Source: an uncultured Planctomycetia bacterium
GTDB taxonomy: Bacteria; Omnitrophota; Gorgyraeia; 2-02-FULL-51-18
Reading direction: 5' to 3'
DNA: 44,329 bases
NCBI GenBank assembly: GCA_964642015.1
Contig: CAZXLF010000009.1
Location: 1,435 to 45,763 of the forward strand
In this document: piece by piece, positions 1 through 17,584 of the stretch
Numbering within the stretch: the stretch's first letter is position 1
Layout of the letters: every line of letters begins with the position of its first letter
Made by a program: the position numbers and the translations under genes
Notes under the pieces: model-generated
Told to the model about the DNA's origin: nothing
Seen by the model: the letters and a program-made list of their open reading frames with translations, nothing else
The model's database searches: none

Positions 1-407
1 TTAAGACCCGGGATATTGGGCTCGGGTCTTGTTTGCCTACCTTCAAGATCGAAAAATCCTGGAGCTGTGAAATATACGGATGAGACCCGGTCGGGATTTC
101 CGTAGAATTGAATAATTTGGCCGATGGCATTCACAATCCTATTGACCACGATTGCCTCATGATCACCTGGCTCGTTGGTATTAACCGTTGCTCTGTAGCC
201 TAAGAGCCCATATTCATTGGCCGCCTCGAAAGAAATCGTACTTCCGCCGACCTTTCCAACGATCTTAATGGGTCCACGGTAATCAAATTTTATTCTTTGC
301 GCCAATCTCAGCAATTCGCTTGTTGAAAGTTCTCCATGATAAAGAGTTAAAAGTTTGACAGCATCGCTGATCTGTCCTTTATCCAGAGCGCTATTCACCA
401 AGTTATA
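1..407 (-). other. ROK-family (sugar kinase/repressor)-like module, truncated by window edge
   Basis: IVGKVGGSTI (cf. GIDIGGT), VYFTAPGFFD (cf. GIGAPGPVD), PNIPGL (cf. PNLPGW). Confidence 0.55.
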
Positions 408-3400
408 CGCTAAACGAGCACCTTCCGGCGTGGCTGATATTTGCGCGGTGAGTGATTTATACTCCGTGAGCTTGGCGCTTAATTCGGGAGTCAATGCTAC
501 CGAGCGAACGGCTTTCAGAGCCGGGACCAATACATTTTTCGTGATCGTATGAGTTGCGCGTTCTTCAGTAGAGCGGACCAATGCCTCAAACGCGTTATCC
601 GATAACGACAATATCTGAGCAACCGGGTGCTGCGCTGCTCTGACTATCTTGGTGTCTGCGGCACGCTTTGCACTCGACTGAGAATAAAGTCTGTCTATTT
701 CCTTGGAAACAGCATTTCTTTGACTGATAAGCTCTTCTTTTGGAGACGGAATCGTTTCCGTATCAAAACTAAATTGCTCCACAAGTTTCGCCGTGATCTC
801 ATCGGCATTCGGGTAACCAGAAACAACTCTCCTAAAAGCTGCGGTGAATGCAACCTTATCATTCGCCCTACCTCCCCTGATCTCTGCAAAAACCTGTCTG
901 GCACGCTGTCTTGCTTTGGTGCCGCTGATCCCGGCTACTTCGAGAGCTTTTATAAGATCGGCTTCTTTCGCATCACGGATATTTGGTTTCTCAGTAGAAA
1001 GTCGGGCGCCAATAGCTCCGACTACTGGTCTATTTTTCAAAAATTCAGCTAACGCTGTCATAAAATTCTGACGCACTTCCAGCACATTTTCTTCGTCCGC
1101 CAGGCCCGGTACATCGCCTTTTATTGCAAGCGTGTCGACTCCGCCTCTTTTTCTTTCAACGATCTGACTAGTCTGATTGCGATACTCTGCCATCCGCGCA
1201 TCAAATATCTGTTGAAATTTGGCCAAATCCAGTCCTTTAGTGCCAGGGATAATCGGCGCATCGGGTCTTTCTTTGCCCTGCGCAATATCATCGATAGCTC
1301 TTTGCTTGACACGATCGAACAGGACGCTTTCTTCGACATCCAAAATCGCATAAAGATTCAGTTTAAGCGGCTGGTCGTTAATAAATAATTTATTGGCGGA
1401 TTCTAAAACATCCAGCTGACGGGATGTGCGCGGAAAACCGTCAAAAACGATACCGTAAGCATTCCTATATTCGGGGAGCGCCAATACCGCATTGATGACT
1501 TTAAAAGCCGATTCATCCGACAAAAGCTCACCTTTAGCCATACGAGCTAATTCATCAGCTGAAATAAGATTGACAAACTGCTCAAATTTCTCATCGCCCG
1601 GTTCTCTTTTGTTTGAAACAATACGATCTATGCCTCTAAAGTAATTACCGATCACAAGCGTTACATATTGTTTGTTTGAAGGAAGCCAAGAATTGACCTG
1701 AGAAATGAATTCTCCGATCAACGTGCCTTTGCCTGCACCTGGCCGTCCGAAGGCCGTAATATAACGGGCCTTTTGAGAAAATTCCTTGGCCAATTGTGAA
1801 CTTACGCGTCCTCTGACGAGTTCGCTTCTTAAAATTCTAATGTCTCTCGGCGCGACGATCCGCACGCGCGGATAAACTCTTCCTCTGCCATCCGCATAAC
1901 GGCTGGCATAAAGTTGAATTCCGGGAGCAACTTGGTAGGGCACTTTTTCAGTGAGTTTGACGTTTTCTGTTATGCCGCCTTTTTTATTAATTTCGACAGA
2001 AATGGTAAAACGGCTGTGCGCACCCTTAATGTTCGTAACGGTCACTTCGATATCATTGCCTATCAAAAATGAGGTGCCAACTTCCCTTGCAAGCTTCAAT
2101 CCTGCAGGAACAATGCCTTCGGCAAGTCTTGCGCCAGATTCTGCAGCCTGTTCATATGGACGCAATGCATATCCTATCTGCTGCTCCACATGCGCGGCAT
2201 CAACGCCTTTTAGATTAGCGCTTAGACGCTTAGCAACGACTTGCGCCAGCTCACCCGGATTTATACCGGAAGATAGATTAGCGGGCACGATCACGATCGG
2301 GGTGCTGCTTGTCGTTTCCGTAACTTTAATACTAAGGGAACTCAACCCGGCCCTTTCCGAAGAAACTTTCTCAACTTCTACGTTAAAATCTCTTTCAAAT
2401 CTTCTAAACTGAGCGTTCGCATTTTCAGACAAACGTGCACCATTTGACACAAAGATTCCACTCAATATGTGGTCTGTATTTTGCAATACTCCCGCTTCAG
2501 CTTCTTGGGTTGAACCGCCAATATGAGGCGTATAAATAGCCCAGCGCTTGAGCTGCGCAGAGACAGGAACTTCATCCACGATATATTTAACATCAGGCCT
2601 TGTATCTAACAGCCTCCAAACCTGACTTTCATCCACCAGGCTTTCCCGATCAGGGTTGATTACCGCAACCAGATTTCTGTTTTGGATCAACGCATCAACA
2701 GCTTTCGCATCAATCAAACCTTTTGTTGTATCATTCAAGCCCGTGATAAGAATTACGTAGGTCGAGCCTCGATAAATTTGTTCTTTTGTGGTCACGGAAT
2801 AACCGGCATCGGTAAGTCGACGTCTGGCGGATTCATCGGATTCGCTTGAACGGGAATTGATCCTCACATTGGCTTTAAGCGCCTTGGCTGAAGACGCGAT
2901 CTGAAGTCCGATGTCACCAGCTCCAATAATGCCGACCGTCGCACCGTTTAATGATCTGATGGTATTTGAATCAATGTTTTGGAATAGCGCAACGGCCTTA
3001 GCTTTTAACAAGCGCTGTTGGGATTCCTCGAGACCTGCGGACTTCGAAGTGACGGCGCTTAAAAATGTCCCGGGAGTGAAAAAATATTTTGCCGGCGCTC
3101 TGTCAGTTGCCGCTTCAGAGCTTTGGCCCCTTAGAGCAGCGAATGCGATCGCTCTTAAAGTCCAAGCTGTAATGGATCTCGCCGAACCTTTGGTACCAAT
3201 AACTGTGATGCCTTTTTGAGTTAGAAGATCCTTACTTGCAGTGACATTATCAAGACCATGCCCTAAACGGACAACGTATCTCAGTCTAGGCAATTGATTC
3301 ACTAAATTATCATCCACAGTCGTAGCCGAACGAACCAAAAGAATGATCGGATTCAATTCAACAATCTTTTGTATCTTAGCAGCCTTATCCTTAATATCGG

Positions 3401-6400
3401 CCACACTCTGTACGCCAGAGATAGAAAGTTTGGTTACATCGATCTTATCCGCCGCAACAACATCCTCTCCTTTGATGGCAACAGGCTGGATGTTTCTTGC
3501 TTTATAAATTGCATTCTGAACGATTTCCCTTTGGGTTTGTGTATATTCGGCGGTGCGCAAATTATCTACATAGAATTTTGTCGCTTTATCAGTATTTCCT
3601 ACTACAAGTCTTTCAACCTCTGCGACATTGTCGGATTTGATAGCTGTTCTCAACGCTGCGTTAAAAACCTTATCTTGTTCAACTGCTAACCTCGCACCAG
3701 AAATTGGTTTTGGAAGCTCGATTTGAGGGACAACCGGCCCTTGTTCACTGGCGATCGCTTGGACGCGCTCGCCCTCAATGACGGGTATAGCAGCAGTGGC
3801 CCTATATTCGTTCTGTGCTTCCTTGGGCGGGGCAGGCACTTGATTCGCCAATCTCGCACCTTCAGATGCTTGAGTTAACTTAACGATCACGTTCTTCAAG
3901 TAATATCTCGCTGTAACAGTTCCGATCTCTTCTTTCTGGAAAGTTTTATCACCCTTAAGAACGGGCGACGTTCCTCGCTGTGTCTCAAATTTGACAACCC
4001 TTAAATATGGAGCGCTGTCCACATCCTTTGGAATGTAAATTACATACGAAAAAGATTCGGCCGGAATACTGTAAGCATCCGTATTTGGTAACTCAGGATT
4101 CTGACCAAGGTACACCAAATTTTCGAGCGGAGCTGTATGCACCAGGTCTGCGATATCCTGCATCGTGAGATTTTCTGGAGCGATCGCATTGACGCGTGCG
4201 GCCACTGACAAGCGCGCACCACCGGAAGGAGGTGGATTCGGGATCGCGCTCATGATCGCGATCGTAAGCCCGTGAGGTTTTGGCAGATTTATACTCTGAA
4301 GGTGGTAAATTTTATCCGCATCAAGCGGGATAACTTTTATCAAATAGCTGTAACGTTGTTCGGCTCCGGCTATCTTTTTGGCTTCCGCAACAGGAACGGT
4401 TAAATTTCCATAAGCGATCGTTTGGTAACCCTTCGACGAATCCAATAGATCGATGATTCTGTAGTAAGTATCTCTGGCTGAACGCCCTGGCCTGACTGAC
4501 GAAGCGGCAACCTTTGCTCCTTCTTGTTTCTGTCTCCAAGCGTCTGTTACAAAAGTATCTTGTTCCTTTATGCTGAGAACGCTGTAACCATACTTCTCAA
4601 GCTCGGCAACAACTTCATCCCTCGTAATTCTTTGGTCCGGCTTCTTTTTTGCATTAAAGGTGGTGACAATTTGGGCAATGCTAACCACGGGCGGAACGTT
4701 CGAGTTGTTCAGATCTGCTTTCAACTCGATAAGTGCCTGCTTTTCTGCTAGACGCGCGCCGGAAGACTTTTCACTTTTTGATGCATTAGCTTCCGCAAGC
4801 CGCTTACTCAAATCTTCGACCATTCTGCGGGCAAGATCTTGTTCGGGGCCAGGGGTGAGAGCCTTGATCTGCCATTTGCTTAATTCAGTATGGAGAATAT
4901 CGATTTCGTTTTCATCTGCTGCCAACCGTGCTCCCGCGACGGACTCATATTCTTTTTTAGCTTTATCGAGAATGTCATAAACCCAGGCGACCGTCGGTGG
5001 ATTTTCTTTTAGATCGGGATTTGCCTTGAATATCTGCTGGACGGCTTTTTTCTGCTGAACTTCCGAACGGTTTGTCTGTAAAAAGTTCTGAACGATCAGT
5101 CTTAGGGCTTCATTAAAACGGTAAGCGCCTGATACTTTGAACGAAACAAGTTCCGCTGCGACTTGATTTAAAAAGTTTCTATCTTTAATATCCTTGACCG
5201 CCTCGGCCAATGAAATTTCTCCGCTAAGATAACCGACCGCTTGGCTGAGAGCAAACTCGTTCTCGCGGACAAGATCCTGCATGCGGTCAAGGTTCTGCGC
5301 TACGCGGTCTTCTTCGGGAGATGACAAGCGTGCGCCGGAAGGTTGTCCGCCATTGAGTGGAGTTTTTGTGATAAAGTTCTGCAGGGCGGTCTTGTCCGAG
5401 ACCAGCTGCTGGATCTTTTCAGTGTTTACCGAAACTGCTATTAGATTGAGGTTGCTTTCGTTCCAGTCTTCTTTAAAAATTTCCGCATCGACCATCCGTT
5501 TTGTCGCTTCGCGATTGTCTAGTGTGGGAATTAAGTAATGCACCGTGCCTGCTTTATAGCGATAGATCAGGAATAGTTGAACAAGACTCATCAAGCGTTT
5601 TTTGCGGAATGATTCACTCGTTTCCTGATCCGTAACTTCGATGATCCGATCCAATCCCCTGACTTCGACAAATCTGAATTTGATCGATGCTATTTTGCGA
5701 TAATTCTTGTCGAAAACGTTCAGCGACATCTCATCGGAACCGATCTCAAGAGGCCGCATCTCCGCTGTGAGCGGACCCTGCACGCCATTCTGTTGTGCCC
5801 AGATATTAAGCCATCCTTCAAGCGTACTAAGCGGCACCTCAACCTGTGTCTTGTGCTGAGCAGCCGTGGATTTTCCGCCCATTGATTCTGTGGAAGCCGA
5901 AAGACCTGTCGCCGCTTTAAGTTTTGCGTCCGCAAGATTTCCACCCACGAATTCCTGTGGCCGCTGAGCGGGCAGATTTTCAAGCCTCAAACCTCTCTGG
6001 ACCTGAACAACTCCCCACGCGCCGTTCTCTTTGACAGCCCGTGAAAGCTGGGCAGCGGCCAAGGCGTCGGCCTGGTGACCACCATAAGTCGTGAAGTTGA
6101 AAACGTAACCGCGTCTGCCGAGTTCACGATTGTAATTTTTGATCTGTTGGTCGGTAAACCCAAACGCATCCCAGTTGAATGAGGGAGAAATGTTTTGAGC
6201 CAATCTCTTCTGAGGAAATTGAGCATGGATCGCGGATGCAAAGTGATGATCTTCGCTTTTATCATCCGGTACTCTCAAAAGATCCGGCTCTTTCGACTCG
6301 CGCCATATCAAATGAGCATAAGGCGCAAAAGACAGACCGCGCGCGATCGACATCTCGACGCCGCCAGTGATCTGATAATAACCTTCAACGGTCCGCGGCA

Positions 6401-9400
6401 GGCTCCAATCCCAGAAAATTTCAATGCCAAGTTCACGCGCTTGATCGCGGGCTGCTTTATTGTTGGGGGCTGTTTTCACAAATTCGAGCCACTGTTCGGG
6501 CGTCATTGTGAATTTTTCACTCTTTTCCATACGGCTTCTCATTTCATCCGCAACGGCCTCGCCATACGTCTTCATTCCGGCTGCCCGCACCCACGCCTCA
6601 TGAACTTTTTTCATCGCGTTATCAAGCGCCTTATCGGAATCAATGCCGCCCGGATTTTTCTCCGAACGCACCGTAGCAATAGCTTCATCTATAGCGCCTG
6701 AGATATTCTGCTCATCAAACCATGTGGACGCCTTGCGATAATCTGAATCCGCAAGGCCGAACATCTTGTCGGCTATCAATTCTTCCGCGTTTACGCCTTT
6801 TTCACGAAATCTTTTAAACACAGACAGGGTTACACTGGCATAAGTGGGCACGTCTTTGCGCGTTGCGCCTAGAATAAAACGATGATCGCGACCGTCTTCA
6901 TTGCTTGAAAGGAATGTTGCCTCATTAGCATCCGTGCGGGCAACAATGATCCCGGGTACACCCATTAGCGCAAATTGAAAAGCCGCCGTGCTCAGTCGGG
7001 TAATATGTGTCGAAGTGGAAACAAGCACTTTGCCGCCCTGGTGGCCGCAAACTTTCCGCTTGTCCTGGTCCTCAATATGGACTGCTCCGATACCGGCTTC
7101 CACAAAAAGACGGACAAGATTCATAAGCTGATGCTCGCTTCCGTGACCGTTGTCCGCATCAGCAATGATACGCGGTAAATAATCGATCGAAGGGGTTTTC
7201 TCAAGCTGTTCAGTCGTCATCTTAGAACGCACAAGCCGCTGGATCGCATCCTGTTGAAGCATCGCTCGAACGATCGCTTGCCCGTCTTCGGGAACAGTGC
7301 TCAGCGCATAACTCGCCGTATCCGCTCCCGGCACTTCTCTGCTCGAACCTTTGGCGGAAGTAGCCCATCCACCTAAATAGGCAATCTCAATTCCCTGTTG
7401 TCTTTGGATCACCGCTTCCGTTGACGTGTAAGGACCGTATGTGGAAACTTGGTCTTTACTTCTAAACTTTTCCCACAAAATTTGATTCATGCTTTCAGCG
7501 GCTCGGGTCGCAGTCGTGTATTCAGGACGGAGCGCGCCTCGCATTCTCACAACCTGGCGCGCATTGAACGCAAGCGAAAGCTCATTAAAACTCGAATTCT
7601 TAAGCCATTGATCTGTCTCTTGAACTTCCCGTTCAAATTGTTCAACCTCAGCGGTCGCTAACCTAGCTCCGATGGCTACCGTTTCACTTTTTGCTGTCGG
7701 ATAATAATCATAGACGTAGTCATGCGCGGCTAAAACTTTATCGCTCCACACACCAGCCTGAACTTTATTGACGACTTCTTCGCGTGAAGGGGCAAAAATG
7801 GCATCCAGAATATCCTGACGCTCTTTTTGGTCTGCTTTGGCAATAACAAAAAGAACTCGAGGACTGTGCTGGAGATACCGGCTAGACGCCATCTGGCGCT
7901 TTAAAACTTCCATGATCGTGTCTGCTTCGGCACGATTGAAACGCGACTCTTCTCCTTTTCTATCTTGTTCGGCAAAAAATGCCTGTGTCCATTCATTATG
8001 CAAATCCCACAACTGCTTAAATATTTCAGGAGTAAGAACTGTTCCCGCTTTGATCTCGATCCTATTCTCACCGGGGATCACGCCTAATTTTGGATCAAGA
8101 ACCGGTCCTTTAAGATATCCGTCTTTGGTGACTTTCGCTTGATGGTTGAAAGCTGTCCACATATGGCCGTTGAAAATACGGTAAGTGGCCAGATCATTCA
8201 TGAAACGGAGCCCTAATTCGTAGTCATCTATGGCAGCCGCATAATTACCGTTCAAAATTTGATAACCGTACTGCGCCTGCATGAAAAATTCATGCTGGAT
8301 ATGCTCGATCGTAAGCTCTCCTTTGGGAACACCGTAAAGACTGTTCCAAAGTTCGTCATTGAAAAGTTTTTCTGGCGAACCCAATTTTTCTTTGGTAACA
8401 ACCCAAGGAACGATCTTGCCTTGCGGATTCAAAAGACCAAGAGTCGTGAATAAATTCCGTTCGGCTTCGATAAGACCACTAGCAACCGTAGGAGCGACCC
8501 TTTTACCATCGACTTCTGTCCATTTTTCAGGCGCGTTAACAAGAGCTTGCAGATCATTCAATGCCGCACGGAGCGGACCGTTGCCTGCCGCGACGTATTC
8601 TTTGTCCGTTGTCGCTACCCAGCTTTGACGGTAGGCATCATAGATATGACCTTTAACTTGACCGCTCAAAATATCTTCCAATGTCGCTGACCGAACAGAT
8701 GAATCTTCGGGAACAAAGATAAGCCCAAGCAAACGTTCGCGAAGTTTATCGATCTTCATCGCACGAAGCGCTTTGGGATTATTTTTATAACGCTGATAAG
8801 AATCTGTGTTCGGATAAAGCATGACGGCCGCCATTCCGCCGATCGGTGCGCCATTCACCTGCTCACCATTTTTCGTACCCGCCATTACATTAAGCAGCGC
8901 ATTGATACGCTGATAAACCACTAAATTTGAAGAGTTCATATTGATGCTTTGCGGGTCCGGCCAAACAGCTTCGTCTTTCCACATTTCAATCAGGCTTCCT
9001 ATATAGTCCCACCGCCCCACATTCGAACCGATCAGGCGATCGCGCAAAACCCACATAATGACCGGCATGAATCGTCCGGCATTTCCTTCCTCATAGAGCA
9101 TCTCGATCTTTATCTCACCGCGCTTAAGACCCATGATATCTTCCAAAGTAGCCAGGAGCTTTGCAACGATCAGGGCCTCCTGAGGTGTCTGCATCTTGGG
9201 TTGATAATAATAATTGCCGGAACCGTTCTGTTTCAGTGCGCCGTAAGTATTCAATGCATGAAGTGCGTAAGCAATAGCGATGGCAGGTACCGGCTTGCCG
9301 TTGATCGTAATATAAGGATAGTTCAAATGCATGCCGGGAACACGCTGGATCGTTGTGGGACGTTCCTCGCGGGATTTGGACAAACGGTATTCGCGTTTTT

Positions 9401-12365
9401 CGCCTTTCTTCATGACCTCAAAAACTTTTCCATCCCACTCGCCGGATAAAAGCTGGAGTTCATTTTGAATACCTTCAAAAACTCCAATGGACTGCTCTTG
9501 AGGATTTCCTTCCCATGCTGCCGAGGCGTCTTCAGCGTCAGGCATGCGCACTGAAAGATCGGCATTGAGCTGGTTCATGGCCATATTCAACGGATCTGAA
9601 GGGCCGGTGACCTGAAGACCGGGTTTAGCTAAAGGAAAAATATCGGCCGGCACTGGCACATCATTGTTCAGTCTCCAGCTAAATTCGCTGTTGATTCCAA
9701 AAAAATTATCGATCATTCCCTGAAGGATCTGTCTAAAACTGTGGACATTGCCGTCAGCGTCAGTAAAGGTCTGATCCCAATCAGGAAACGCATATTTCTG
9801 TTTGGTTGAAGCTTTGGATTCGAGAAGCTCGCGGCGGGCATTCAATGCGTTGGGTATATCGTCGCCAACAGCATTAGCAAGCTGGGCGATCACTTCGGCT
9901 GGAACTAATGTCTTTCCATTGATAGTTTTATTCTCAAAGAGTCTCGCGTATCGTCTGAGCAAAGAAGGATCAACTTCTACGGAAGCAGACAACCGCGCAC
10001 CAGAAACAGAAGGCCGAAGCGTGAGTTTATTGCCCTGAATTTCCACTTGCACAGGAAATACAAACCGTTCGCCGATAGATTGTGAGGCTTGGATCGTTGC
10101 TGGTACATTCAAAAAATCTATAAAAACAGCCGTCGGAATTCTACCTGTCTGATAAAATTCAATACCGGCGACCACGGGCTTGTCATCGCCTACCTTTAAA
10201 GCAACTAAAGAAGGATGGCCAAATACTTTGTTTGCGCTAATTAATCCCTCTTGTTCTGCTTCTCCTTTGTAAGAAAGTCCTGCTGCTTCTAAAAGTCTGA
10301 AGAAATTTTGTTTTGATTCACCTTCCAAAATAATCGGGAAAATATAACCTTTCGCTGATGGGGAAAAAAACCATCTTCCGTGTCGAGCGTCTGCTTCCAA
10401 ATTAAATTCTTCTGCCAATCTTGCGCCGGTCCGATCTTGACCGCGTCGCTCAGCTCTTTTTTCGGCTCTTTTAAGCTTTTCAAGTCTTATTTCATCGGGA
10501 GATTCAACAGCCATCTGCCGGGTAAGCTCTAATGATTTTCGATTAATATATGCGCGGGTCTCCGCTGATTTTTTTGGTTTTGAATTTTCTTCGGCCATCC
10601 GTGCGCCGGCAAGCGCATATTGCGGAACCGTCTCAACAAGCTTACCTCCAACAGAACCGACGCCGCCGATCCCAGCTGAAGATCCGCCCAGATCCCTTTC
10701 TCGGAGATCTCTAACTAAATAAGTTTTTTCAGGCGTCTCTATTAAAGGAAGGAGCGCGATTTTGTTCTCATCTTTTGAAGAAGATCCGGACAATATTTTC
10801 TCTGAGACGGGTTTTTGGGATAAAAGCAATTTTTCATACCTCTTATGGTTCGTCTCCTGCAAGATCTGAGGGGTTACAACAACATAAGAGATGTTCTTTT
10901 CTCTCAATAAAGCCTTCAAATTCGGGGTGTGATAACCGCCCGTCACAAGGACCGCTTTGGTCTGTTTTTCGGACTCCATCTTAGCCGAAAGATTTTCGAC
11001 GAACGCGCGGTCGCGACTGACTGTCAGTTCATAAAATTCTTCCGCGCGCTTTATGTAATCCTCATAACCATTTTCAAGGAACAATGCACGCTCATAAAAG
11101 GACTTGAGATCCATGATCTTTTTATTCAGAAAACCGGTGATGAACGTGACACCAAATGCATCAGAGTGATCTTTGTAGAACTGAAAGTCTTCCGGTGTCA
11201 TGGTCAGATCGAAAAGATTCTTCAAGGATCTCAGATTATCCGAGCATTGATGCAGGTCTTTTTCATCCGCTGTTCTGATGAGAGCGGAGTAGATCTGGTT
11301 TTCCAGCAATTTCTGCTCGGCCAACATTTCTTTGGGATTGATCTTGTCAGCGGATCTCAGATATTCGAAATACTTTGTAAGTTCCGGATATTGGGGCCCG
11401 TTTTTTTGCTTTTTAACGACTTCTTCAAGAAGGTTATAGAACGCTTTTCCGACTTTGTGATCACGGCTTGAAAATTTAAATGGGGACTTTACTTCCTGGG
11501 AAGCCAACAAAAGCGCCTGAGCATCTTCTTTCGAAGCGGATTCAACTGCTTGGATCTGCTCATCACCGGCCTTTTTGAAATCGATATTTTTCTCTTGCGA
11601 TTTTAATTCCTTAAGCGCGTTTAGGTAAGGAAAATAATCAAGATTGATATCTCTTTTGGAAGCCTCATTGGTCAGCGTGTCAAAATAATCGGTCCAGGAG
11701 ATCTTTTCATTCAAGAATTCATTGCGCTTGTCATCAAATTCCTGAAGCGCCGGATTAAAGATCCGGGGTTTAAGCGTGTCAATTGTTGTACCGATCCTTT
11801 TCAGATAATCCTCGAACTGATCACGGCCTTTGGCGACGGCCTCATAAGAGCTCAGCGCTTTCCAATAAAGCTCTTTATTTTCAACGCCCCAAAGCACGAA
11901 ATGAAGGTTTGAAGTCAGATCAAGATATTCGCTGCCTGAAAGAACGCCTTTTTTAACATAGGAATTGGCAACTTCTGTTCTTTTTTCTAACGAAGCGCTG
12001 TCCCTTAAAAAATCCAGTGAATCGTCGCCTGTGCCGGCTTCTAAAAATACATACTTGATATTTTGGCTCTCAAGGATAGTCTGGATCGCCTTCGAAGAGT
12101 TCAGCTGCCCAGACTCATTGGTATGAGCATCTTGTATAAGAAAAACGGTTTTCGTGGAAGTTTTATTACCAGAACCTGACGCTAAAAACGAATCCTCGAC
12201 CAGCGCTACCGACTGAGGTATCTCAAAATTGATAAGGGGTTTCTGGAAAAAATTGAATTCCGCAGGCCTTAAATCGATAGCCGCATAGGAAACATCATGG
12301 ATAAAGAATGATATTAAAAGGAACGAAGATAAAACTCGCAACGCGGGGTGAATTCTTCTATTCAT
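1..12365 (-). CDS. Giant multi-enzyme polyprotein-like protein (>=4,121 aa, 3' end outside window) with signal peptide and GAR[LM][AS]-delimited modules
   Basis: ATG at 12363-12365 preceded by AGAAGG. The frame reads as continuous protein from MNRRIHPALRVLSSFLLISFFIHDVSYA to ...GFFDLEGRQTRPEPNIPGL at position 3. No terminated ORF in this frame appears in the track, consistent with no internal stop. Confidence 0.93.
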   Translation of the reverse strand, partial: MNRRIHPALRVLSSFLLISFFIHDVSYAAIDLRPAEFNFFQKPLINFEIPQSVALVEDSFLASGSGNKTSTKTVFLIQDAHTNESGQLNSSKAIQTILESQNIKYVFLEAGTGDDSLDFLRDSASLEKRTEVANSYVKKGVLSGSEYLDLTSNLHFVLWGVENKELYWKALSSYEAVAKGRDQFEDYLKRIGTTIDTLKPRIFNPALQEFDDKRNEFLNEKISWTDYFDTLTNEASKRDINLDYFPYLNALKELKSQEKNIDFKKAGDEQIQAVESASKEDAQALLLASQEVKSPFKFSSRDHKVGKAFYNLLEEVVKKQKNGPQYPELTKYFEYLRSADKINPKEMLAEQKLLENQIYSALIRTADEKDLHQCSDNLRSLKNLFDLTMTPEDFQFYKDHSDAFGVTFITGFLNKKIMDLKSFYERALFLENGYEDYIKRAEEFYELTVSRDRAFVENLSAKMESEKQTKAVLVTGGYHTPNLKALLREKNISYVVVTPQILQETNHKRYEKLLLSQKPVSEKILSGSSSKDENKIALLPLIETPEKTYLVRDLRERDLGGSSAGIGGVGSVGGKLVETVPQYALAGARMAEENSKPKKSAETRAYINRKSLELTRQMAVESPDEIRLEKLKRAEKRAERRGQDRTGARLAEEFNLEADARHGRWFFSPSAKGYIFPIILEGESKQNFFRLLEAAGLSYKGEAEQEGLISANKVFGHPSLVALKVGDDKPVVAGIEFYQTGRIPTAVFIDFLNVPATIQASQSIGERFVFPVQVEIQGNKLTLRPSVSGARLSASVEVDPSLLRRYARLFENKTINGKTLVPAEVIAQLANAVGDDIPNALNARRELLESKASTKQKYAFPDWDQTFTDADGNVHSFRQILQGMIDNFFGINSEFSWRLNNDVPVPADIFPLAKPGLQVTGPSDPLNMAMNQLNADLSVRMPDAEDASAAWEGNPQEQSIGVFEGIQNELQLLSGEWDGKVFEVMKKGEKREYRLSKSREERPTTIQRVPGMHLNYPYITINGKPVPAIAIAYALHALNTYGALKQNGSGNYYYQPKMQTPQEALIVAKLLATLEDIMGLKRGEIKIEMLYEEGNAGRFMPVIMWVLRDRLIGSNVGRWDYIGSLIEMWKDEAVWPDPQSINMNSSNLVVYQRINALLNVMAGTKNGEQVNGAPIGGMAAVMLYPNTDSYQRYKNNPKALRAMKIDKLRERLLGLIFVPEDSSVRSATLEDILSGQVKGHIYDAYRQSWVATTDKEYVAAGNGPLRAALNDLQALVNAPEKWTEVDGKRVAPTVASGLIEAERNLFTTLGLLNPQGKIVPWVVTKEKLGSPEKLFNDELWNSLYGVPKGELTIEHIQHEFFMQAQYGYQILNGNYAAAIDDYELGLRFMNDLATYRIFNGHMWTAFNHQAKVTKDGYLKGPVLDPKLGVIPGENRIEIKAGTVLTPEIFKQLWDLHNEWTQAFFAEQDRKGEESRFNRAEADTIMEVLKRQMASSRYLQHSPRVLFVIAKADQKERQDILDAIFAPSREEVVNKVQAGVWSDKVLAAHDYVYDYYPTAKSETVAIGARLATAEVEQFEREVQETDQWLKNSSFNELSLAFNARQVVRMRGALRPEYTTATRAAESMNQILWEKFRSKDQVSTYGPYTSTEAVIQRQQGIEIAYLGGWATSAKGSSREVPGADTASYALSTVPEDGQAIVRAMLQQDAIQRLVRSKMTTEQLEKTPSIDYLPRIIADADNGHGSEHQLMNLVRLFVEAGIGAVHIEDQDKRKVCGHQGGKVLVSTSTHITRLSTAAFQFALMGVPGIIVARTDANEATFLSSNEDGRDHRFILGATRKDVPTYASVTLSVFKRFREKGVNAEELIADKMFGLADSDYRKASTWFDEQNISGAIDEAIATVRSEKNPGGIDSDKALDNAMKKVHEAWVRAAGMKTYGEAVADEMRSRMEKSEKFTMTPEQWLEFVKTAPNNKAARDQARELGIEIFWDWSLPRTVEGYYQITGGVEMSIARGLSFAPYAHLIWRESKEPDLLRVPDDKSEDHHFASAIHAQFPQKRLAQNISPSFNWDAFGFTDQQIKNYNRELGRRGYVFNFTTYGGHQADALAAAQLSRAVKENGAWGVVQVQRGLRLENLPAQRPQEFVGGNLADAKLKAATGLSASTESMGGKSTAAQHKTQVEVPLSTLEGWLNIWAQQNGVQGPLTAEMRPLEIGSDEMSLNVFDKNYRKIASIKFRFVEVRGLDRIIEVTDQETSESFRKKRLMSLVQLFLIYRYKAGTVHYLIPTLDNREATKRMVDAEIFKEDWNESNLNLIAVSVNTEKIQQLVSDKTALQNFITKTPLNGGQPSGARLSSPEEDRVAQNLDRMQDLVRENEFALSQAVGYLSGEISLAEAVKDIKDRNFLNQVAAELVSFKVSGAYRFNEALRLIVQNFLQTNRSEVQQKKAVQQIFKANPDLKENPPTVAWVYDILDKAKKEYESVAGARLAADENEIDILHTELSKWQIKALTPGPEQDLARRMVEDLSKRLAEANASKSEKSSGARLAEKQALIELKADLNNSNVPPVVSIAQIVTTFNAKKKPDQRITRDEVVAELEKYGYSVLSIKEQDTFVTDAWRQKQEGAKVAASSVRPGRSARDTYYRIIDLLDSSKGYQTIAYGNLTVPVAEAKKIAGAEQRYSYLIKVIPLDADKIYHLQSINLPKPHGLTIAIMSAIPNPPPSGGARLSVAARVNAIAPENLTMQDIADLVHTAPLENLVYLGQNPELPNTDAYSIPAESFSYVIYIPKDVDSAPYLRVVKFETQRGTSPVLKGDKTFQKEEIGTVTARYYLKNVIVKLTQASEGARLANQVPAPPKEAQNEYRATAAIPVIEGERVQAIASEQGPVVPQIELPKPISGARLAVEQDKVFNAALRTAIKSDNVAEVERLVVGNTDKATKFYVDNLRTAEYTQTQREIVQNAIYKARNIQPVAIKGEDVVAADKIDVTKLSISGVQSVADIKDKAAKIQKIVELNPIILLVRSATTVDDNLVNQLPRLRYVVRLGHGLDNVTASKDLLTQKGITVIGTKGSARSITAWTLRAIAFAALRGQSSEAATDRAPAKYFFTPGTFLSAVTSKSAGLEESQQRLLKAKAVALFQNIDSNTIRSLNGATVGIIGAGDIGLQIASSAKALKANVRINSRSSESDESARRRLTDAGYSVTTKEQIYRGSTYVILITGLNDTTKGLIDAKAVDALIQNRNLVAVINPDRESLVDESQVWRLLDTRPDVKYIVDEVPVSAQLKRWAIYTPHIGGSTQEAEAGVLQNTDHILSGIFVSNGARLSENANAQFRRFERDFNVEVEKVSSERAGLSSLSIKVTETTSSTPIVIVPANLSSGINPGELAQVVAKRLSANLKGVDAAHVEQQIGYALRPYEQAAESGARLAEGIVPAGLKLAREVGTSFLIGNDIEVTVTNIKGAHSRFTISVEINKKGGITENVKLTEKVPYQVAPGIQLYASRYADGRGRVYPRVRIVAPRDIRILRSELVRGRVSSQLAKEFSQKARYITAFGRPGAGKGTLIGEFISQVNSWLPSNKQYVTLVIGNYFRGIDRIVSNKREPGDEKFEQFVNLISADELARMAKGELLSDESAFKVINAVLALPEYRNAYGIVFDGFPRTSRQLDVLESANKLFINDQPLKLNLYAILDVEESVLFDRVKQRAIDDIAQGKERPDAPIIPGTKGLDLAKFQQIFDARMAEYRNQTSQIVERKRGGVDTLAIKGDVPGLADEENVLEVRQNFMTALAEFLKNRPVVGAIGARLSTEKPNIRDAKEADLIKALEVAGISGTKARQRARQVFAEIRGGRANDKVAFTAAFRRVVSGYPNADEITAKLVEQFSFDTETIPSPKEELISQRNAVSKEIDRLYSQSSAKRAADTKIVRAAQHPVAQILSLSDNAFEALVRSTEERATHTITKNVLVPALKAVRSVALTPELSAKLTEYKSLTAQISATPEGARLAYNLVNSALDKGQISDAVKLLTLYHGELSTSELLRLAQRIKFDYRGPIKIVGKVGGSTISFEAANEYGLLGYRATVNTNEPGDHEAIVVNRIVNAIGQIIQFYGNPDRVSSVYFTAPGFFDLEGRQTRPEPNIPGL
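1011..1770 (-). other. Adenylate/NMP kinase-like module
   Basis: P-loop GRPGAGKGT (1722-1748), MAKGELLSD, IVFDGFPRTSRQ, short LID region ERPD. Confidence 0.85.
1815..2099 (-). other. CsrA-like domain, possibly a tandem single-chain form
   Basis: LKLAREVGTSFLIGNDIEVTVTNIKG ... RVRIVAPRDIRILRSEL matches both ends of CsrA but spans about 95 aa. Confidence 0.62.
2442..3683 (-). other. D-2-hydroxyacid dehydrogenase (SerA/PGDH-like) module
   Basis: LLVRSATTVD, VVRLGHGLDNV, TVGIIGAGDIG (Rossmann), INPDRESLVDE, ITPHIGGSTQEA. Confidence 0.82.
5337..7655 (-). other. Isocitrate lyase module, long ICL2 type with C-terminal acyl-CoA-binding (GNAT-like) domain (773 aa)
   Basis: YLGGWATSAKGS, IIADADNGHG, HIEDQDKRKVCGHQGGKVLV (Cys 7047-7049), VARTDA, TVEGYYQI, NISPSFNW, FTTYGGHQ, and C-terminal RKKRLMSLVQLFLIYRYKAGTVHYLIPT. 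Confidence 0.92.
7671..9986 (-). other. Malate synthase module (772 aa) in giant protein
   Basis: QVTGP, PDAEDA, QRVPGMHL, YQPKMQ, MLYEE, SNVGRWDY, PIGGMAA, FMNDLATYRI; catalytic Arg and Asp equivalents appear retained. Confidence 0.88.
10608..12281 (-). other. N-terminal EreA/ChaN/TraB/TIKI-superfamily-like domain with large helical insert
   Basis: Motif order VFLIQDAH (H 12123-12125), VFLEAG, LWGVE, SRDRAF, AVLVTGGYH (H 10929-10931) mirrors the H/E/R[DN]/GxxH pattern of the superfamily. Confidence 0.55.
12282..12365 (-). other. Sec-type signal peptide of giant protein
   Basis: MNRRIHPALR (basic), VLSSFLLISFFI (hydrophobic), HDVSYA-A (small residues at -3 and -1). Confidence 0.7.
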
Positions 12366-12588: not shown

Positions 12589-13365
12589 TTAAAAGGCAAG
12601 AATGTGGTAACCGCAGTCAACAAATATGACTTCGCCGGTGATCCCGCGGCTTAATGAGCTGAACAAGAATAAAGCGGTATCACCTACTTCTTCCGGTTCC
12701 GTATTTCGCTTGAGAGGAGCTTTTTCGCGTGCAATTTTTAAAATCTCGGAAAACCCACTTATCCCCCTTGCGGCCAAGGTATTGATGGGACCTGCCGAGA
12801 TAGCATTGACACGGATATTTTTAGAGCCAAGATCATGGGCCAGATATTTGACACTTGATTCGAGAGCGGCTTTAGCCACACCCATCACATTGTAACCGGG
12901 AGCCACGCGCTCTCCGCCAAGGTAAGTCAATGTCGTGATACTTCCGCCGCCTTTTTTTTCCATAAGCGGAGCGAATTTTTGAGCTAAAAATGTTAAAGAA
13001 TATGCGCTTACTCCAAGCGCCGTATCAAATCCATCCTTTTTGGTTTTGGTGTATCCGCCTTCGAGATCCTCTGCTTTAGCATAAGCAATGCAGTGAGCCA
13101 TAAAATCAAGGCCGTGCCAAGATTCGTCGAGTTTTTTTACAACCGCATCGACCTGCGATTCCAGCATCACATCACACGGCAATATAATCGAATTTGGCAA
13201 TGTTCCGGCCAGCTCACGGACATTCTCTTCGAGTCTCTCGCCTTGATAAGTGAATGCTAATTCAGCACCTTCGCGTGAAGCGCTCTGCGCGATCGACCAA
13301 GCGATGCTGCGCTTATTAGCGACCCCCAGGATTAAACCTTTTTTTCCTTCTAATAATTTGGCCAT
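12589..13365 (-). CDS. fabI: Enoyl-ACP reductase
   Basis: GVANKRSIAW, YNVMGVAKAALE, RVNAISAGPI. Confidence 0.97.
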   Translation of the reverse strand: MAKLLEGKKGLILGVANKRSIAWSIAQSASREGAELAFTYQGERLEENVRELAGTLPNSIILPCDVMLESQVDAVVKKLDESWHGLDFMAHCIAYAKAEDLEGGYTKTKKDGFDTALGVSAYSLTFLAQKFAPLMEKKGGGSITTLTYLGGERVAPGYNVMGVAKAALESSVKYLAHDLGSKNIRVNAISAGPINTLAARGISGFSEILKIAREKAPLKRNTEPEEVGDTALFLFSSLSRGITGEVIFVDCGYHILAF

Positions 13366-13368
13366 GGT

Positions 13369-14613
13369 CTATCCTTTGAATTTTTTTACGATGATCGAAG
13401 TGTTGTGTCCGCCGAACCCTAAAGAATTGGAAAGACATGCTTCCACAGAAGTTTTACGAGCAGTGTTCGGAACGTAATCTAGATCGCATTCGGGATCAGG
13501 GCTGGATTGATTGATCGTGGCATGCAGCGTCTGATCTCTGAGAGATAAACAGCAGACAACGAATTCGATACCGCCCGCTGCCCCTAAAGTATGCCCTGTC
13601 ATTGATTTTGTGGAATTGATCGCAAGTTTCTTGGCGTGATCTTTGAATACCGTTTTGATGGCCAAAGTTTCGATCTTATCATTCAATTCGGTTGACGTCC
13701 CATGTGCATTAATATAATCGATTTCTTGTGGGCTCATCTTCGCATCTTTAAGCGCGAGGTTCATGCAATAGGCCGCGCCTTCACCGTCAGGCCTTGGGGC
13801 GGTCATGTGAAAAGCATCTCCGTTCAAGCCGTATCCGACGATCTCGCCATAAATTTTTGCGCCGCGCGCTTTTGCATGCTCCAATTCTTCCAAAATCACG
13901 ATCCCGGCGCCCTCGCCCATCACAAAACCATCTCTTTCCTTATCAAAAGGCCTAGAAGCGGCTTTGGGGTCATCGTTTCTTTTGGATAACGCTTTAAGCG
14001 CGCAAAACCCTCCGATACCCAAAGGAGTGACGCAGCTTTCGGTGCCGCCGGCAACCATGACCTTTGCCTGGCCGTGCTGAATAATACGGAACGCCTCACC
14101 GATCGCGTGCGTGCCTGTCGCGCAAGCCGTAACAACAGCAAGATTCGGGCCCTTGAGGCCTAAAAGAATCGAGATCCAACCAGAAGCCATATTGATGATC
14201 AAAAGCGGGATCATGAACGGCGAAAATTTTTCAGGACCTTTTGTCAAATAAATGGAGTGAGTTTCTTCTATAATACGTAGGCTACCGATGCCGGAACCGA
14301 CCAGAACACCCACTTCGAACGGGTTTTCTTTATTCATGTCAATGCCGGAATCCGCAAACGCTTCTTTTGCCGCCGTTACAGCAAATTGGGCGAATTGCTC
14401 CATGCGCTTGGATTCTTTTAAAGGGATCGTCGCCTTGGGGTCATAACCTTTGACCTCGGCTGCGATGCGGCTTTCGAACTGGTGGGGATCAAAATACGTG
14501 ATTTTGTCGACGCCGCTTTTTCCCGCAAGAAGGGAATTCCAAAAATCGTTAATATTATTACCAATGGGAGTGACGGCTCCGAGGCCGGTCACCACCACCC
14601 GCGGATAAGGCAT
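13369..14613 (-). CDS. fabF: Beta-ketoacyl-ACP synthase II
   Basis: VTACATG, NAHGTST, GHTLGAAG, SNSLGFGGHN. Confidence 0.97.
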   Translation of the reverse strand: MPYPRVVVTGLGAVTPIGNNINDFWNSLLAGKSGVDKITYFDPHQFESRIAAEVKGYDPKATIPLKESKRMEQFAQFAVTAAKEAFADSGIDMNKENPFEVGVLVGSGIGSLRIIEETHSIYLTKGPEKFSPFMIPLLIINMASGWISILLGLKGPNLAVVTACATGTHAIGEAFRIIQHGQAKVMVAGGTESCVTPLGIGGFCALKALSKRNDDPKAASRPFDKERDGFVMGEGAGIVILEELEHAKARGAKIYGEIVGYGLNGDAFHMTAPRPDGEGAAYCMNLALKDAKMSPQEIDYINAHGTSTELNDKIETLAIKTVFKDHAKKLAINSTKSMTGHTLGAAGGIEFVVCCLSLRDQTLHATINQSSPDPECDLDYVPNTARKTSVEACLSNSLGFGGHNTSIIVKKFKG

Positions 14614-14618
14614 AAAAT

Positions 14619-14867
14619 CTATTTGGAGGTCTTCGCAGCCTTTTCTTCGACGTAACGGACCGCTTCACCGACGTTGGTCATTTTTTCCGCATCTTCGTCG
14701 GGTATCTCAATGCCAAACTCTTCTTCCAGTGCCATCACTAGCTCAACCGTGTCAAGCGAATCAGCCCCCAGATCATCCACGAAAGACGCGGAATCCGTGA
14801 CTTCCTCGATCTTGACGCCCAACTGCTCCGCAATGATTGATTTCACCTTCTGTGCAACTTCGGCCAT
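14619..14867 (-). CDS. acpP: Acyl carrier protein
   Basis: [20 protein letters not shown]; AGGAGG RBS. Confidence 0.98.
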
Positions 14868-14879
14868 TGTTCCTCCTTG

Positions 14880-15635
14880 TTACATCACCATTCCGCCATC
14901 AACTGTGATGACTTGACCTGTGATAAAATTGCTCTCGTCCGATGCTAAATAAAGAGCTGTCTTTGCAACATCTATCGGTTTCCCAAAAAAACCGACAGGA
15001 ATCGATTTTAAAATATTTTGCTTAACTTCCTCACTGAGCGCTTGGGTCATCTCAGTATCAATAAATCCCGGGGCTATCGCGTTCACCAACACATTACGGG
15101 ACCCTAATTCCTTCGCGACTGATTTCGTCAGGGCGATGATCCCCGCTTTGCTAGCAGCATAATTGGCTTGCCCGGCATTACCGGTCATACCGATCACAGA
15201 CGCCATGTTGATAATCTTGCCGGAACGCTGCCTCATCATCACCTTCGACGCCGCCCGCATGCAGAGAAAAGTGCCTTTCAAATTCGTGTTAAGCACTTCA
15301 TCCCAATCATCTTCTGACATCCGCACGAACAAACCATCCCGTGTGACGCCGGCATTGTTGACGAGTATATCAACTCGCTCATATTTGTCAAGGGTTTTGT
15401 CCAGAAGTTCAGCGACTTTGGCAACATCTTTCACATCAACCGTAAAACAAAGGGGTTGAAAACCGCCAACCGCTTCAATCTCTTTGGATAGCGCCTCCAA
15501 AAGCTCCTGATTTCTCGCGGTCAAGACCAATTTAGCCCCCTCTTTGGCAAATAAAAGCGCTATTTCTTTACCAATGCCTCGGCTAGCGCCCGTAATAATA
15601 GCGACTTTCCCGTCCAACTTTTTAGTCGATGGCAT
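14880..15635 (-). CDS. fabG: 3-oxoacyl-ACP reductase
   Basis: TGASRGIG, NNAGVTRD, GQANYAASK. Confidence 0.97.
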   Translation of the reverse strand: MPSTKKLDGKVAIITGASRGIGKEIALLFAKEGAKLVLTARNQELLEALSKEIEAVGGFQPLCFTVDVKDVAKVAELLDKTLDKYERVDILVNNAGVTRDGLFVRMSEDDWDEVLNTNLKGTFLCMRAASKVMMRQRSGKIINMASVIGMTGNAGQANYAASKAGIIALTKSVAKELGSRNVLVNAIAPGFIDTEMTQALSEEVKQNILKSIPVGFFGKPIDVAKTALYLASDESNFITGQVITVDGGMVM

Positions 15636-16542
15636 GAAAATCCTCCAAACCGCTCAAAGAGATCGTTTCGACGGCAGGATCTATTTTTTTCAAAAGACCT
15701 TTCAAGACCTTTCCCGGAGAAAATTCGATAAAAGTCTGTATCCCTTTCCCTATAATAAAACGCATTGAATCTTCCCATAGCGTTCGATGATTCATTTGTA
15801 AAACCAGGTTATGCTTTATAGTTTCGGGCGTATCTTCAATATTGGCGGTAAGATTGCTTACAACCGGAATCCGAGGCCTCTGGATCATGGCGTTTTTGAG
15901 CGCTTGCTCAATTCGGCGGCATGCCGGGTCCATGCAGCTTGAGTGAAACCCACCACTCACATCCAGAGGAATGACTTTGCGTGCGCCCATTTGACGCAGT
16001 TTCTCAATGGCATCCTCGACATTTTTCTTTTTGCCCGATATCACAATCTGGCCAGGAGCATTCAGATTTCCAACTTCGGCTCCGGTCGCTTTACAGGCTT
16101 CCTCAACCGCAGAAAGTTCCATACCAAGAACGGCTGCCATAAGACCGGGACACTCCATCGCGGCCTCGTCCATATACTGACCGCGAGCCCTCACAAAACG
16201 AAGTCCGTCATCAAAAGAGATCGCTCCGGCAGCACAAAGCGCAGTAGCCTCCCCTAGGCTCAGTCCAGCGGCAAATCTTGGAGCGAAAGTTTTGAATTTT
16301 GGGTGATCTTTTAGAGCTTCGAGCGCGGCCATGCTTGTAACAAAAATAGCGGGCTGACTAAAACGTGTCTGTGTCAGTTTTTCCGGAGGACCCTCAAAAC
16401 AAACAGAGCGGACATCAAAATCAACGATCTCGGCGGCCCGATCAAAGATCGCTTTGGCTGAAGGATAAGTATCATAAAGATCTTTTCCCATCCCGGTGAA
16501 TTGAGATCCCTGGCCCGGAAAAAGATAGGCGACGTCTACCAT
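15622..16542 (-). CDS. fabD: Malonyl-CoA:ACP transacylase
   Basis: FPGQGSQ, GLSLGE, VSGGFHS; start taken as ATG 16542 overlapping the fabH stop (track uses 16563). Confidence 0.95.
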   Translation of the reverse strand: MVDVAYLFPGQGSQFTGMGKDLYDTYPSAKAIFDRAAEIVDFDVRSVCFEGPPEKLTQTRFSQPAIFVTSMAALEALKDHPKFKTFAPRFAAGLSLGEATALCAAGAISFDDGLRFVRARGQYMDEAAMECPGLMAAVLGMELSAVEEACKATGAEVGNLNAPGQIVISGKKKNVEDAIEKLRQMGARKVIPLDVSGGFHSSCMDPACRRIEQALKNAMIQRPRIPVVSNLTANIEDTPETIKHNLVLQMNHRTLWEDSMRFIIGKGIQTFIEFSPGKVLKGLLKKIDPAVETISLSGLEDFHAID

Positions 16543-17519: not shown

Positions 17520-17545
17520 AATATCTCAATTAGTTAATAGTACAC

Positions 17546-17580
17546 GGTTAGCGGTTTGCGCGAAACGCCAACCGCTCACC
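17546..17580. repeat. Intergenic imperfect hairpin between plsX and fabH
   Basis: GGTTAGCGGTT...AACCGCTCACC inverted repeat; similar to the element at 34986-35022. Confidence 0.5.
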
Positions 17581-17584
17581 AGCC

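Follow-up and report, generated by a model that had tools for sequence, protein, structure and literature searches.

A TIKI-fold N-terminal domain as candidate processing peptidase of GARLA-bearing giant polyproteins in Omnitrophota

The locus described here raises the question of which enzyme, if any, reads the short peptide sites that divide a giant protein into modules. It lies in a stretch of 44,329 nucleotides (hereafter the window) of contig CAZXLF010000009.1, assembly GCA_964642015.1, from an uncultured Planctomycetia bacterium that GTDB places in the Omnitrophota. On the minus strand a giant open reading frame (ORF) begins with a domain that we call the N-domain, continues through a Gly/Ser-rich tether and then carries repeated pentapeptides of the form GAR[LM][AS], mostly GARL[AS]. 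A preliminary description of the window, made from the letters of the sequence, had suggested that this domain has an EreA/ChaN/TIKI-type fold and could be the peptidase that recognizes the sites. We have good confidence, based on a predicted structure, that residues ~29–520 represent a family of the TIKI/EreA/ChaN hydrolase superfamily that had no annotation before. That the N-domain is a site-specific endopeptidase processing these polyproteins is the best available explanation of the sequence patterns and the structural model, and we give it an even chance of being right.

The evidence begins with the distribution of the sites. In the window the ORF contains 14 GAR[LM][AS] sites, the first one (GARMA) included, and two more lie in the same ORF beyond it. 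The whole genome (2.2 Mb in 14 contigs) was scanned as 980,699 residues of six-frame segments of at least 100 residues, and 108 of its 114 sites fell in seven ORF pieces that represent five giant proteins. From composition, 0.34 sites would be expected in the 57,582 residues of these polyproteins, and the controls, six versions of the motif with permuted or substituted residues, occurred there zero times or once. The number of N-domains in the genome is exactly five, one at the start of each giant that bears sites, and in an all-against-all BLASTP comparison (E ≤ 1e-5) the N-domain was the sole region common to all five polyproteins. Neither an N-domain nor any site was found in the 16 other ORF segments of at least 1,200 residues, which include an ORF of 8,098 residues and two giants with C39 peptidase domains.

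The association held beyond this genome. A search of 1.84 billion cluster representatives returned 7,301 proteins with the N-domain at E ≤ 1e-3 and 1,764 at E ≤ 1e-30; the family is mostly from Omnitrophota, and the source databases give it no informative name. Among the 150 homologues listed, a GGxH motif lay within the first 700 residues in 143, which places the domain at the N-terminus, and most of these proteins were 1,500–7,400 residues long. The N-domain was present in 27 of 31 related genomes with up to 40 matches per genome, and nearly all of the 150 genome matches listed lay in open frames of thousands of residues. We then compared 69 loci from other assemblies, most of them titled Candidatus Omnitrophota. 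Their 72 ORF segments with an N-domain carried 294 sites (1.79 per 1,000 residues), and 206 segments that start inside the same loci and have no N-domain carried nine (0.09 per 1,000 residues), six of which fall in one locus broken by masked bases. In 113 homologues of at least 1,500 residues we counted 713 sites against 19.3 expected, and the site was the commonest 5-mer in 55 of these proteins. The N-domain is thus tightly tied to GARLA-type sites, in this genome and in the 69 other loci. The distance between the two was also confined, as the first site followed the GGxH motif by 60–200 residues in 100 of 135 family members (median 102). A frame-blind DNA pattern for [GA]-A-R-L-A in the 31 related genomes was uninformative, because its counts track GC content and the controls varied widely, from 2 to 200 per strand. 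A few N-domain loci are titled Auribacterota, Saccharibacteria or Eisenbacteria, and many 'uncultured Planctomycetia'; such odd titles may stem from wrong labels, from mis-binning or from a family that ranges more widely.

The sites themselves have the character of a signal at the protein level. Their logo starts with S/A/Q/T, continues as G-A-R-L-[A>S>T] and runs into a Glu-rich stretch, and S, P and A are favored one position further upstream. All four codons of Gly and of Ala and all six of Arg and of Leu were used at the sites, which indicates that selection acts on the peptide; a DNA or RNA signal in place of a protein signal was ruled out on this ground. Spacing between sites (median 304 residues, 10–90% range 123–769) corresponded to the size range of ordinary proteins, and none of 11 Pfam matches crossed a site. 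The isocitrate lyase 2 (ICL2) module of the window is full-length, with residues 5–764 of 773 aligning to residues 16–764 of the 766-residue solved ICL2, so the sites sit at the ends of complete proteins. One N-domain polyprotein (G000:C8:96741-126401, minus strand) reaches its first GARLA site only at residue 5478; the ~5,400 residues after its head contain neither GARLA nor an alternative repeated motif, with one AARAA at residue 732, and modules can therefore be very large. Another giant (G000:C8:39517-85098, minus strand) has two GARLA-type sites 7 residues apart, at residues 7776 and 7783, as well as 19 strongly hydrophobic segments.

The natural ends of the polyproteins bear on the position of a possible cut. 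Each of the five polyproteins of this genome ends in AA or SA, and the C-termini of 97 of the 150 listed homologues are AA, SA or GA, often with an ARLA/ARMA-like motif a few residues earlier. Since these tails resemble the [G/A]-A found before the Arg in every site, our guess from the sequences is that the scissile bond lies between Ala and Arg, in which case every released module, the last one included, would end in a small residue followed by Ala. The window also holds a transfer-messenger RNA (tmRNA) gene with the tag peptide AKNTNLVHVPFAGPMAFPLAA; because the polyprotein C-termini likewise end in AA or SA, they may be seen by the same tail-recognizing proteases as this tag.

To assign a fold to the N-domain we used an AlphaFold2 model built from 27 sequences (predicted local distance difference test, pLDDT, 79.4; predicted template modeling score, pTM, 0.74). 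Searched against 48,161 representatives of the PDB, independently of Foldseek, the model had its five best matches in HopBA1 (5t09; Z = 9.3 over 164 residues, 3.5 Å), ChaN (2g5g; 8.8), Bcr136 (2qgm; 8.7), EreC (6xcq; 8.6) and Bcr135 (2rad; 8.0), and the C1/C2 region of PMT (2ebf) followed with Z = 6.5. PMT, HopBA1, Bcr135 and ChaN are TIKI-superfamily structures (PMC6254334), and the matches to the superfamily extended over 159–177 residues. Foldseek against the PDB gave nothing at E ≤ 0.001, with EreC and Bcr135 among weak rows only (probability 0.30–0.66) amid helical noise. When its candidates were realigned, members of the TIKI superfamily took ranks 1–7 (Z = 8.1–9.3) and the next row had 7.1; over both comparisons the next unrelated row had 7.1–7.9. 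We base the fold assignment on the fact that every top row falls in one superfamily, the one that the motifs had predicted beforehand. The fold proposed in the preliminary description is thus borne out by the model and by the structural search, and its statement that the superfamily unites TIKI proteases and the RRSP endopeptidase with esterases and a heme-binding protein agrees with PMC6254334.

In sequence searches the best Pfam match was PF04187 (ChaN, Tiki superfamily), which at 13.6 bits (E = 0.069) stayed below its cut-off of 27.7 bits and covered residues 439–480 only. NCBIfam gave no match, and no meaningful match to PDB sequences appeared in single-sequence or profile searches of the N-domain. 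As no curated family matched above its cut-off, we regard the N-domain as a new family and not as a member of a described one. PF01963 (TraB/PrgY/GumN) had no match in this genome, and in 151 Omnitrophota genomes it matched one unrelated ORF of 352 residues in a single genome. An hhalign comparison of the family alignment with a single TraB/PrgY protein revealed no relationship, a weak test given a one-sequence template and an insertion of 270 residues in the query. Two of the 27 aligned N-domain proteins matched DUF5682 (PF18934) weakly, with a best E of 0.0029.

The catalytic residues expected of such a fold appear intact. All motifs picked out in the preliminary description (QDAH, FLEAG, WGVE, RDRAF and VTGGYH, then the Gly/Ser spacer and GARMA) were located in the translated N-terminus of the ORF, and they are not due to chance. 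In an alignment that takes in four paralogues of this genome, 23–46% identical to the query, D79, H81, E109, G160, Y167, F444, Y445, R451, G476, G477, H479, P499 and Y510 were invariant in the 148–155 homologues aligned at these positions, and E162, D452, N83, Q87, N414 and T505 were at least 99% conserved. The resulting pattern is an acidic-x-His motif, a Glu exactly 28 residues further on and a late GxxH, with Asp and not Glu as the first acidic residue. In RRSP the catalytic 2His/2Glu set consists of Glu-3900, His-3902, Glu-3930 and His-4030, and in Bcr135 the catalytic pair is His-85/Glu-113 (PMC6254334); the spacing of 28 residues from His to Glu is the same in H81/E109 of the N-domain, in Bcr135 and in RRSP. 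D79, H81, E109 and H479 may cluster in space, as each of them is placed in the model where a core β-strand ends on its C-terminal side. Fold and intact catalytic site are well supported together, and in the model the N-domain has the look of an active hydrolase.

The core of the domain is split into two halves by an all-helical insertion, as delimited from model and conservation (Table 1). Its first half carries D79-A-H81, N83, Q87, E109 and G160-V-E162; its second half carries F444-Y445 and R451-D452 within a long helix, followed by G476-G477-Y-H479, P499, E504-T505 and Y510-E511. In the insertion Y167, Y174, R181, E258, E269, Y332, Y335 and N414 are invariant or nearly so, and the model suggests that it is possibly a lid or a substrate platform. 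From about residue 520 the model is disordered, and the Gly/Ser-rich spacer proper, LGGSSAGIGGVGSVGG, occupies about residues 560–577. At the other end, residues 1–28, judged by eye, resemble a Sec signal peptide, with a positively charged n-region MNRRIHPALR, a hydrophobic core of ~13 residues (VLSSFLLISFFI) and a c-region HDVSYA followed by a further A. A28 was kept in 133 of 140 homologues (95%), and the model has an N-terminal helix at residues 7–28. In a Kyte-Doolittle scan with 19-residue windows no segment of the window protein reached 1.8, this one included, and beyond the N-terminal segment the hydrophobicity scan detected no further strongly hydrophobic stretch.

Table 1. Features of the giant ORF and its surroundings; positions are those of the window unless a contig is named, and residues are counted from the ATG of the giant ORF.
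Feature	Residues	Position	Strand	Remark
Giant polyprotein ORF		3..12365	−	4,121 residues in the window; extends beyond both the window and the contig start
Probable continuation of the giant ORF		G000:C10:38039-42472		C-terminal ORF fragment of 1,478 residues at the end of another contig
Signal-peptide-like segment	1–28	12282..12365	−	read by eye
N-domain core, first half	48–165	11871..12224	−	strands 54–60, 73–79, 105–108, 157–161
QDAH	78–81	12123-12134	−	
D79-A80-H81	79–81	12123..12131	−	acidic-x-His, invariant in 151/151; proposed counterpart of RRSP Glu-3900/His-3902 and Bcr135 His-85
FLEAG	107–111	12033-12047	−	
E109	109	12039..12041	−	invariant in 153/153; 28 residues after H81
WGVE	159–162	11880-11891	−	
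All-helical insertion between core halves	166–433	11067..11870	−	from AlphaFold2 model and conservation
N-domain core, second half	434–520	10806..11066	−	helix 434–465, strands 470–476 and 493–499
RDRAF	451–455	11001-11015	−	
VTGGYH	474–479	10929-10946	−	
H479 of GGxH	479	10929..10931	−	invariant in 148/148; proposed counterpart of RRSP His-4030
Gly/Ser-rich tether	521–586	10608..10805	−	low confidence, pLDDT ~30–55
First site, GARMA	587–591	10593-10607	−	one codon beyond the lower end of the domain span first proposed
Thirteen further GARL[AS] sites	647, 789, 1566, 2344, 2478, 2536, 2716, 2836, 2890, 3309, 3411, 3786, 3982	408..10427	−	
Malate-synthase-like module	sites 789–1566	7671..9986	−	Pfam MS_TIM-barrel 3.5e-27; PDB malate synthase A 5.7e-27
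ICL2 module, complete	sites 1566–2344	5337..7655	−	E = 9e-190
D-isomer-specific 2-hydroxyacid dehydrogenase module	sites 2890–3309	2442..3683	−	Pfam
CsrA-like segment, then divergent adenylate-kinase-like domain	sites 3411–3786	1011..2120	−	one module
Fatty-acid synthesis operon		12589-18583	−	directly upstream of the giant gene, same strand
ORF of 877 residues		19826-22459	+	weak YhdP-like match
tmRNA gene		41078-41462	+	

To describe how the N-domain might act, we propose the following order of events. The N-domain would fold first and make a first cut in cis at GARMA, behind its own tether. It may then cut further sites of its own and of sister polyproteins, at a motif of the form small-[A/S]-R-[L/M]-[A/S/T] that is GARLA in this genome. 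The modules released from the window protein would include malate synthase, isocitrate lyase 2, a 2-hydroxyacid dehydrogenase and an adenylate-kinase-like protein. We consider the N-domain the best candidate cutter because it heads huge proteins divided by a conserved motif. A broader proposal, that Omnitrophota express a sizeable part of their proteome as Sec-targeted polyproteins (5 to ~40 per genome, each of 1,500 to over 15,000 residues) with their own TIKI-fold endopeptidase, a lineage-tuned pentapeptide and modules ending in small-Ala-COOH, is possible, and we put it forward tentatively, as somewhat doubtful.

The variants of the motif offered a further approach to the identity of the reader. 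The core (a small residue, then R-[L/M]-small) holds across the N-domain family. In this genome 116 of 118 were GARL, one assembly had GARA/GARM in all five sampled polyproteins, other assemblies mix GARL and AARL, and an assembly with few sites uses x-[S/A/P]-R-M-[A/S/T]. A FastTree tree of 66 N-domains, in which many branches are long and support is of the local kind only, showed paralogues of one genome intermingled with N-domains from other genomes. F112 and S115 are shared by all four N-domain paralogues sampled from the GARA/GARM genome, which belong to at least three clades; these residues lie 3 and 6 positions after the catalytic Glu and occur in 5–6% of other sequences. They were the sole genome-specific columns for that genome, three other genomes with at least four paralogues had no such column, and the pattern recurs in three GARAA-rich representatives, perhaps of one lineage. 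This co-variation gives a hint, and only a hint, that the N-domain may be the reader of the sites. The co-variation of N-domain homologues and site motif envisaged at the outset was thus found in part: there is a shared core with genome-specific variants, but the variant is not tied to an N-domain clade, and the N-domain is not singled out by it.

Several observations weigh against the N-domain as processing peptidase. Esterases and non-enzymes occur in its superfamily as well, and a peptidase does not follow from the fold. No significant match to Pfam, NCBIfam or PDB sequences was obtained, and superfamily membership consequently rests on the predicted structure, with a moderate Z, and on motif logic; the best Z of unrelated models is typically 7–8, and the model is itself a prediction. 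The equivalence to the catalytic residues of RRSP and Bcr135 is drawn from order and spacing, and we likewise infer peptide-bond hydrolysis, cleavage at the motif, the scissile bond, the order of cis before trans and the compartment. In cis, neither the tether nor the first site is ordered or docked in the model; a complex prediction of N-domain residues 40–520 (with alignment) and 43 residues around the GARLA at residue 647 gave a score of 0.01 (mark, 0.32) and speaks neither for nor against the proposal. No recognizable site followed the N-domain in 11 of the 135 family members. A signal-peptide-like start implies export of a chain of 4,600–15,000 residues, which is itself unexplained. Catalysis alone also leaves unexplained why each polyprotein has its own copy, because a cut at the first site would detach the N-domain. 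The site variant goes with the genome, whichever clade the N-domain belongs to, which means that all polyproteins of a cell would be read by one specificity; this fits cross-acting N-domains that co-evolve and a single separate protease equally well. The F112/S115 lead comes from one genome, S115 is found in two Leu-type representatives, and other Met-type proteins are without it.

One specificity per genome that cuts across N-domain clades is explained at least as simply if a separate protease acts in trans on the sites and the N-domain is a hydrolase with another task, such as its own removal only, action on a non-protein substrate (as in the erythromycin esterases) or trimming of released modules. 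Other peptidase domains exist in the genome, for example C39 in two other giants, and a Gly-Ala before the cut would presumably resemble a site of the double-glycine type; the presence of esterases among the best structural neighbors points the same way. However, the C39 domains sit in giants without sites, no other domain is common to the five polyproteins, and there are no conserved neighboring genes, the upstream genes being an ordinary fab operon. A protease in trans would also leave unexplained why up to 40 polyproteins of a genome start with an N-domain and why the distance to the first site is fixed. We regard it as rather unlikely, yet as an explanation to be taken seriously.

The pentapeptide might instead stay uncut and serve as a conserved linker between modules or as a recognition tag by which the chain is docked, modified or paused in secretion or folding; the giant would then be one multi-enzyme chain with the N-domain as its hydrolase or anchor. 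In its favor, these ORFs are handled as single giant proteins in the literature (West-Roberts 2023 preprint; 2026 preprint, as far as their available text goes). This reading is hard to reconcile with a strict pentapeptide that is selected at the protein level and lies exactly at the boundaries of complete proteins, with flanks of small residues and Glu that are typical of protease sites, and with module sizes that match ordinary proteins, and we think it improbable. Still less probable is that the N-domain is non-catalytic and serves, like ChaN or PMT C2, as a membrane-proximal anchor, a chaperone or a ligand-binding head. Heme-binding ChaN and HopBA1 are indeed among its best structural matches, and PMT, which lacks the catalytic motif, is inactive (PMC6254334). 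A non-catalytic head would nonetheless hardly be expected to keep an Asp/His/Glu/His set and about a dozen polar residues invariant over 148–155 sequences down to 23% identity, a pattern like that of an active site, and we give this explanation very little weight. A site-specific endopeptidase at the head of each polyprotein remains our preferred reading.

Counted from the ATG, the giant ORF has at least 4,599 residues in the whole-genome check, and its frame runs off the contig start. The 1,478-residue C-terminal fragment on another contig probably belongs to it, judged from the right orientation and from a tail close to that of the most similar sister protein. Between the sites, malate synthase and ICL2 form adjacent modules (window 5337-9986, minus strand), so that the glyoxylate-shunt pair is grouped as in an operon inside one protein. 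Conventional malate synthase and isocitrate lyase genes stand side by side at G000:C6:48237-50627 (plus strand). The CsrA-like segment (residues 3423–3456) scored 22.9 bits, below the Pfam cut-off. Stand-alone genes for adk, isocitrate lyase and malate synthase were found elsewhere in the genome in three of three cases tested, so the polyprotein modules are extra copies. For the three enzymes tested, this also ruled out the idea that the cell has no source of them besides the polyprotein, in which case the modules would have to be cytoplasmic.

The operon upstream of the giant gene encodes PlsX, a FabH-like protein, a FabD-like acyltransferase, a FabG-like short-chain dehydrogenase/reductase (SDR), a FabF-like ketoacyl synthase and an SDR resembling enoyl-acyl carrier protein reductase; it ends ~220 bp before the ATG of the giant gene. 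It gave no hint of a partner gene, and no conserved neighboring genes were found. The YhdP-like match of the ORF on the plus strand had E = 2.7e-4 and lay far below the cut-off. Elsewhere in the genome there is a second class of giants, of 1,582–8,098 residues, that have neither N-domain nor GARLA (G000:C2:125467-149760, C2:322846-332904, C8:129415-138672 and the contig-filling ORFs on C11, C12, C13 and C14). Two of them, C2:322846-332904 and C11, contain C39 peptidase domains. As C39 was found only in these two giants without sites, a C39 peptidase was ruled out as the protease acting in cis.

Giant ORFs are a signature of Omnitrophota, and those described as 'Archaeovorins' and 'multi-enzyme metabolic clusters' share with the present ones the phylum and the tiling of very long frames with enzyme domains. 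Cleavage has been considered possible for them, with unknown cut points and with C39 or S8 domains as proposed agents, in the portions of the reports available to us (West-Roberts 2023 preprint; 2026 preprint; Seymour et al., 2023), and their N-terminal regions are said to lack identifiable domains besides C39 and S8 (West-Roberts 2023 preprint; 2026 preprint). In the available texts of the two preprints, supplements not included, neither Tiki nor 'polyprotein' is mentioned, and 'cleav' and 'motif' are absent from the 2026 text. In a literature search, again without the preprint supplements, neither this N-terminal family nor the pentapeptide was found described. For polyprotein cleavage in giant genes the literature yielded synthetic nif polyproteins only, no paper joined Omnitrophota with polyproteins, and nothing relevant linked Omnitrophota to Tiki, TraB, ChaN or erythromycin esterase. 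The pentapeptide supplies explicit candidate cut points and the N-domain a candidate enzyme with named catalytic residues, and the question of giant-protein cleavage thereby becomes open to experiment.

Among known enzymes, RRSP (DUF5) shares with the N-domain a TIKI-type α/β core, the acidic-x-His motif, a Glu 28 residues on and a late His; it is a metal-independent, Ras/Rap1-specific endopeptidase of MARTX toxins, and an appended helical lobe is needed for its activity (PMC6254334). In contrast to the role proposed here, RRSP cuts a host GTPase and not its own chain, and it is one cargo of a polyprotein toxin and not its processing enzyme. No sequence similarity between RRSP and the N-domain was detected, and RRSP was absent from the fold-search lists, in which its relative PMT (2ebf) appeared. 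EreA/B/C and Bcr135/Bcr136 are among the best structural matches (Z = 8.0–8.8 over 159–177 residues) and a His-Glu pair with identical spacing (PMC6254334). They differ in being free-standing proteins of ~400 residues that hydrolyze macrolide esters, with no polyprotein context or repeated site, and their identity to the N-domain is 8–14%. Tiki1/2 and TraB/PrgY/GumN (PF01963) belong to the same superfamily, but PF01963 does not match the N-domain. Tiki is a metal-dependent protease that removes N-terminal residues from Wnt (PMC6254334), and Tiki/TraB enzymes have been predicted to be leader peptidases in graspetide loci (PMC8939145).

If the proposed role is true, a family of processing peptidases would be added to the TIKI superfamily, giant ORFs could be split computationally into real protein products for annotation, and a compact sequence-specific protease would become available as a tool together with its site. 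Polyprotein expression would then operate at genome scale in cellular life and would be the counterpart in cells of what viruses do. Long chains of modules that combine short conserved sites with a built-in protease also occur in MARTX toxins, where the protease is a cysteine protease domain, and in viral polyproteins, where it is of the 3C or NS3 type. Compared with these, the candidate protease of the present proteins has a TIKI fold and stands at the extreme N-terminus, and the site is a strict pentapeptide. There are, moreover, 5 to ~40 such chains per genome, and their modules are ordinary metabolic enzymes that are also present as normal copies.

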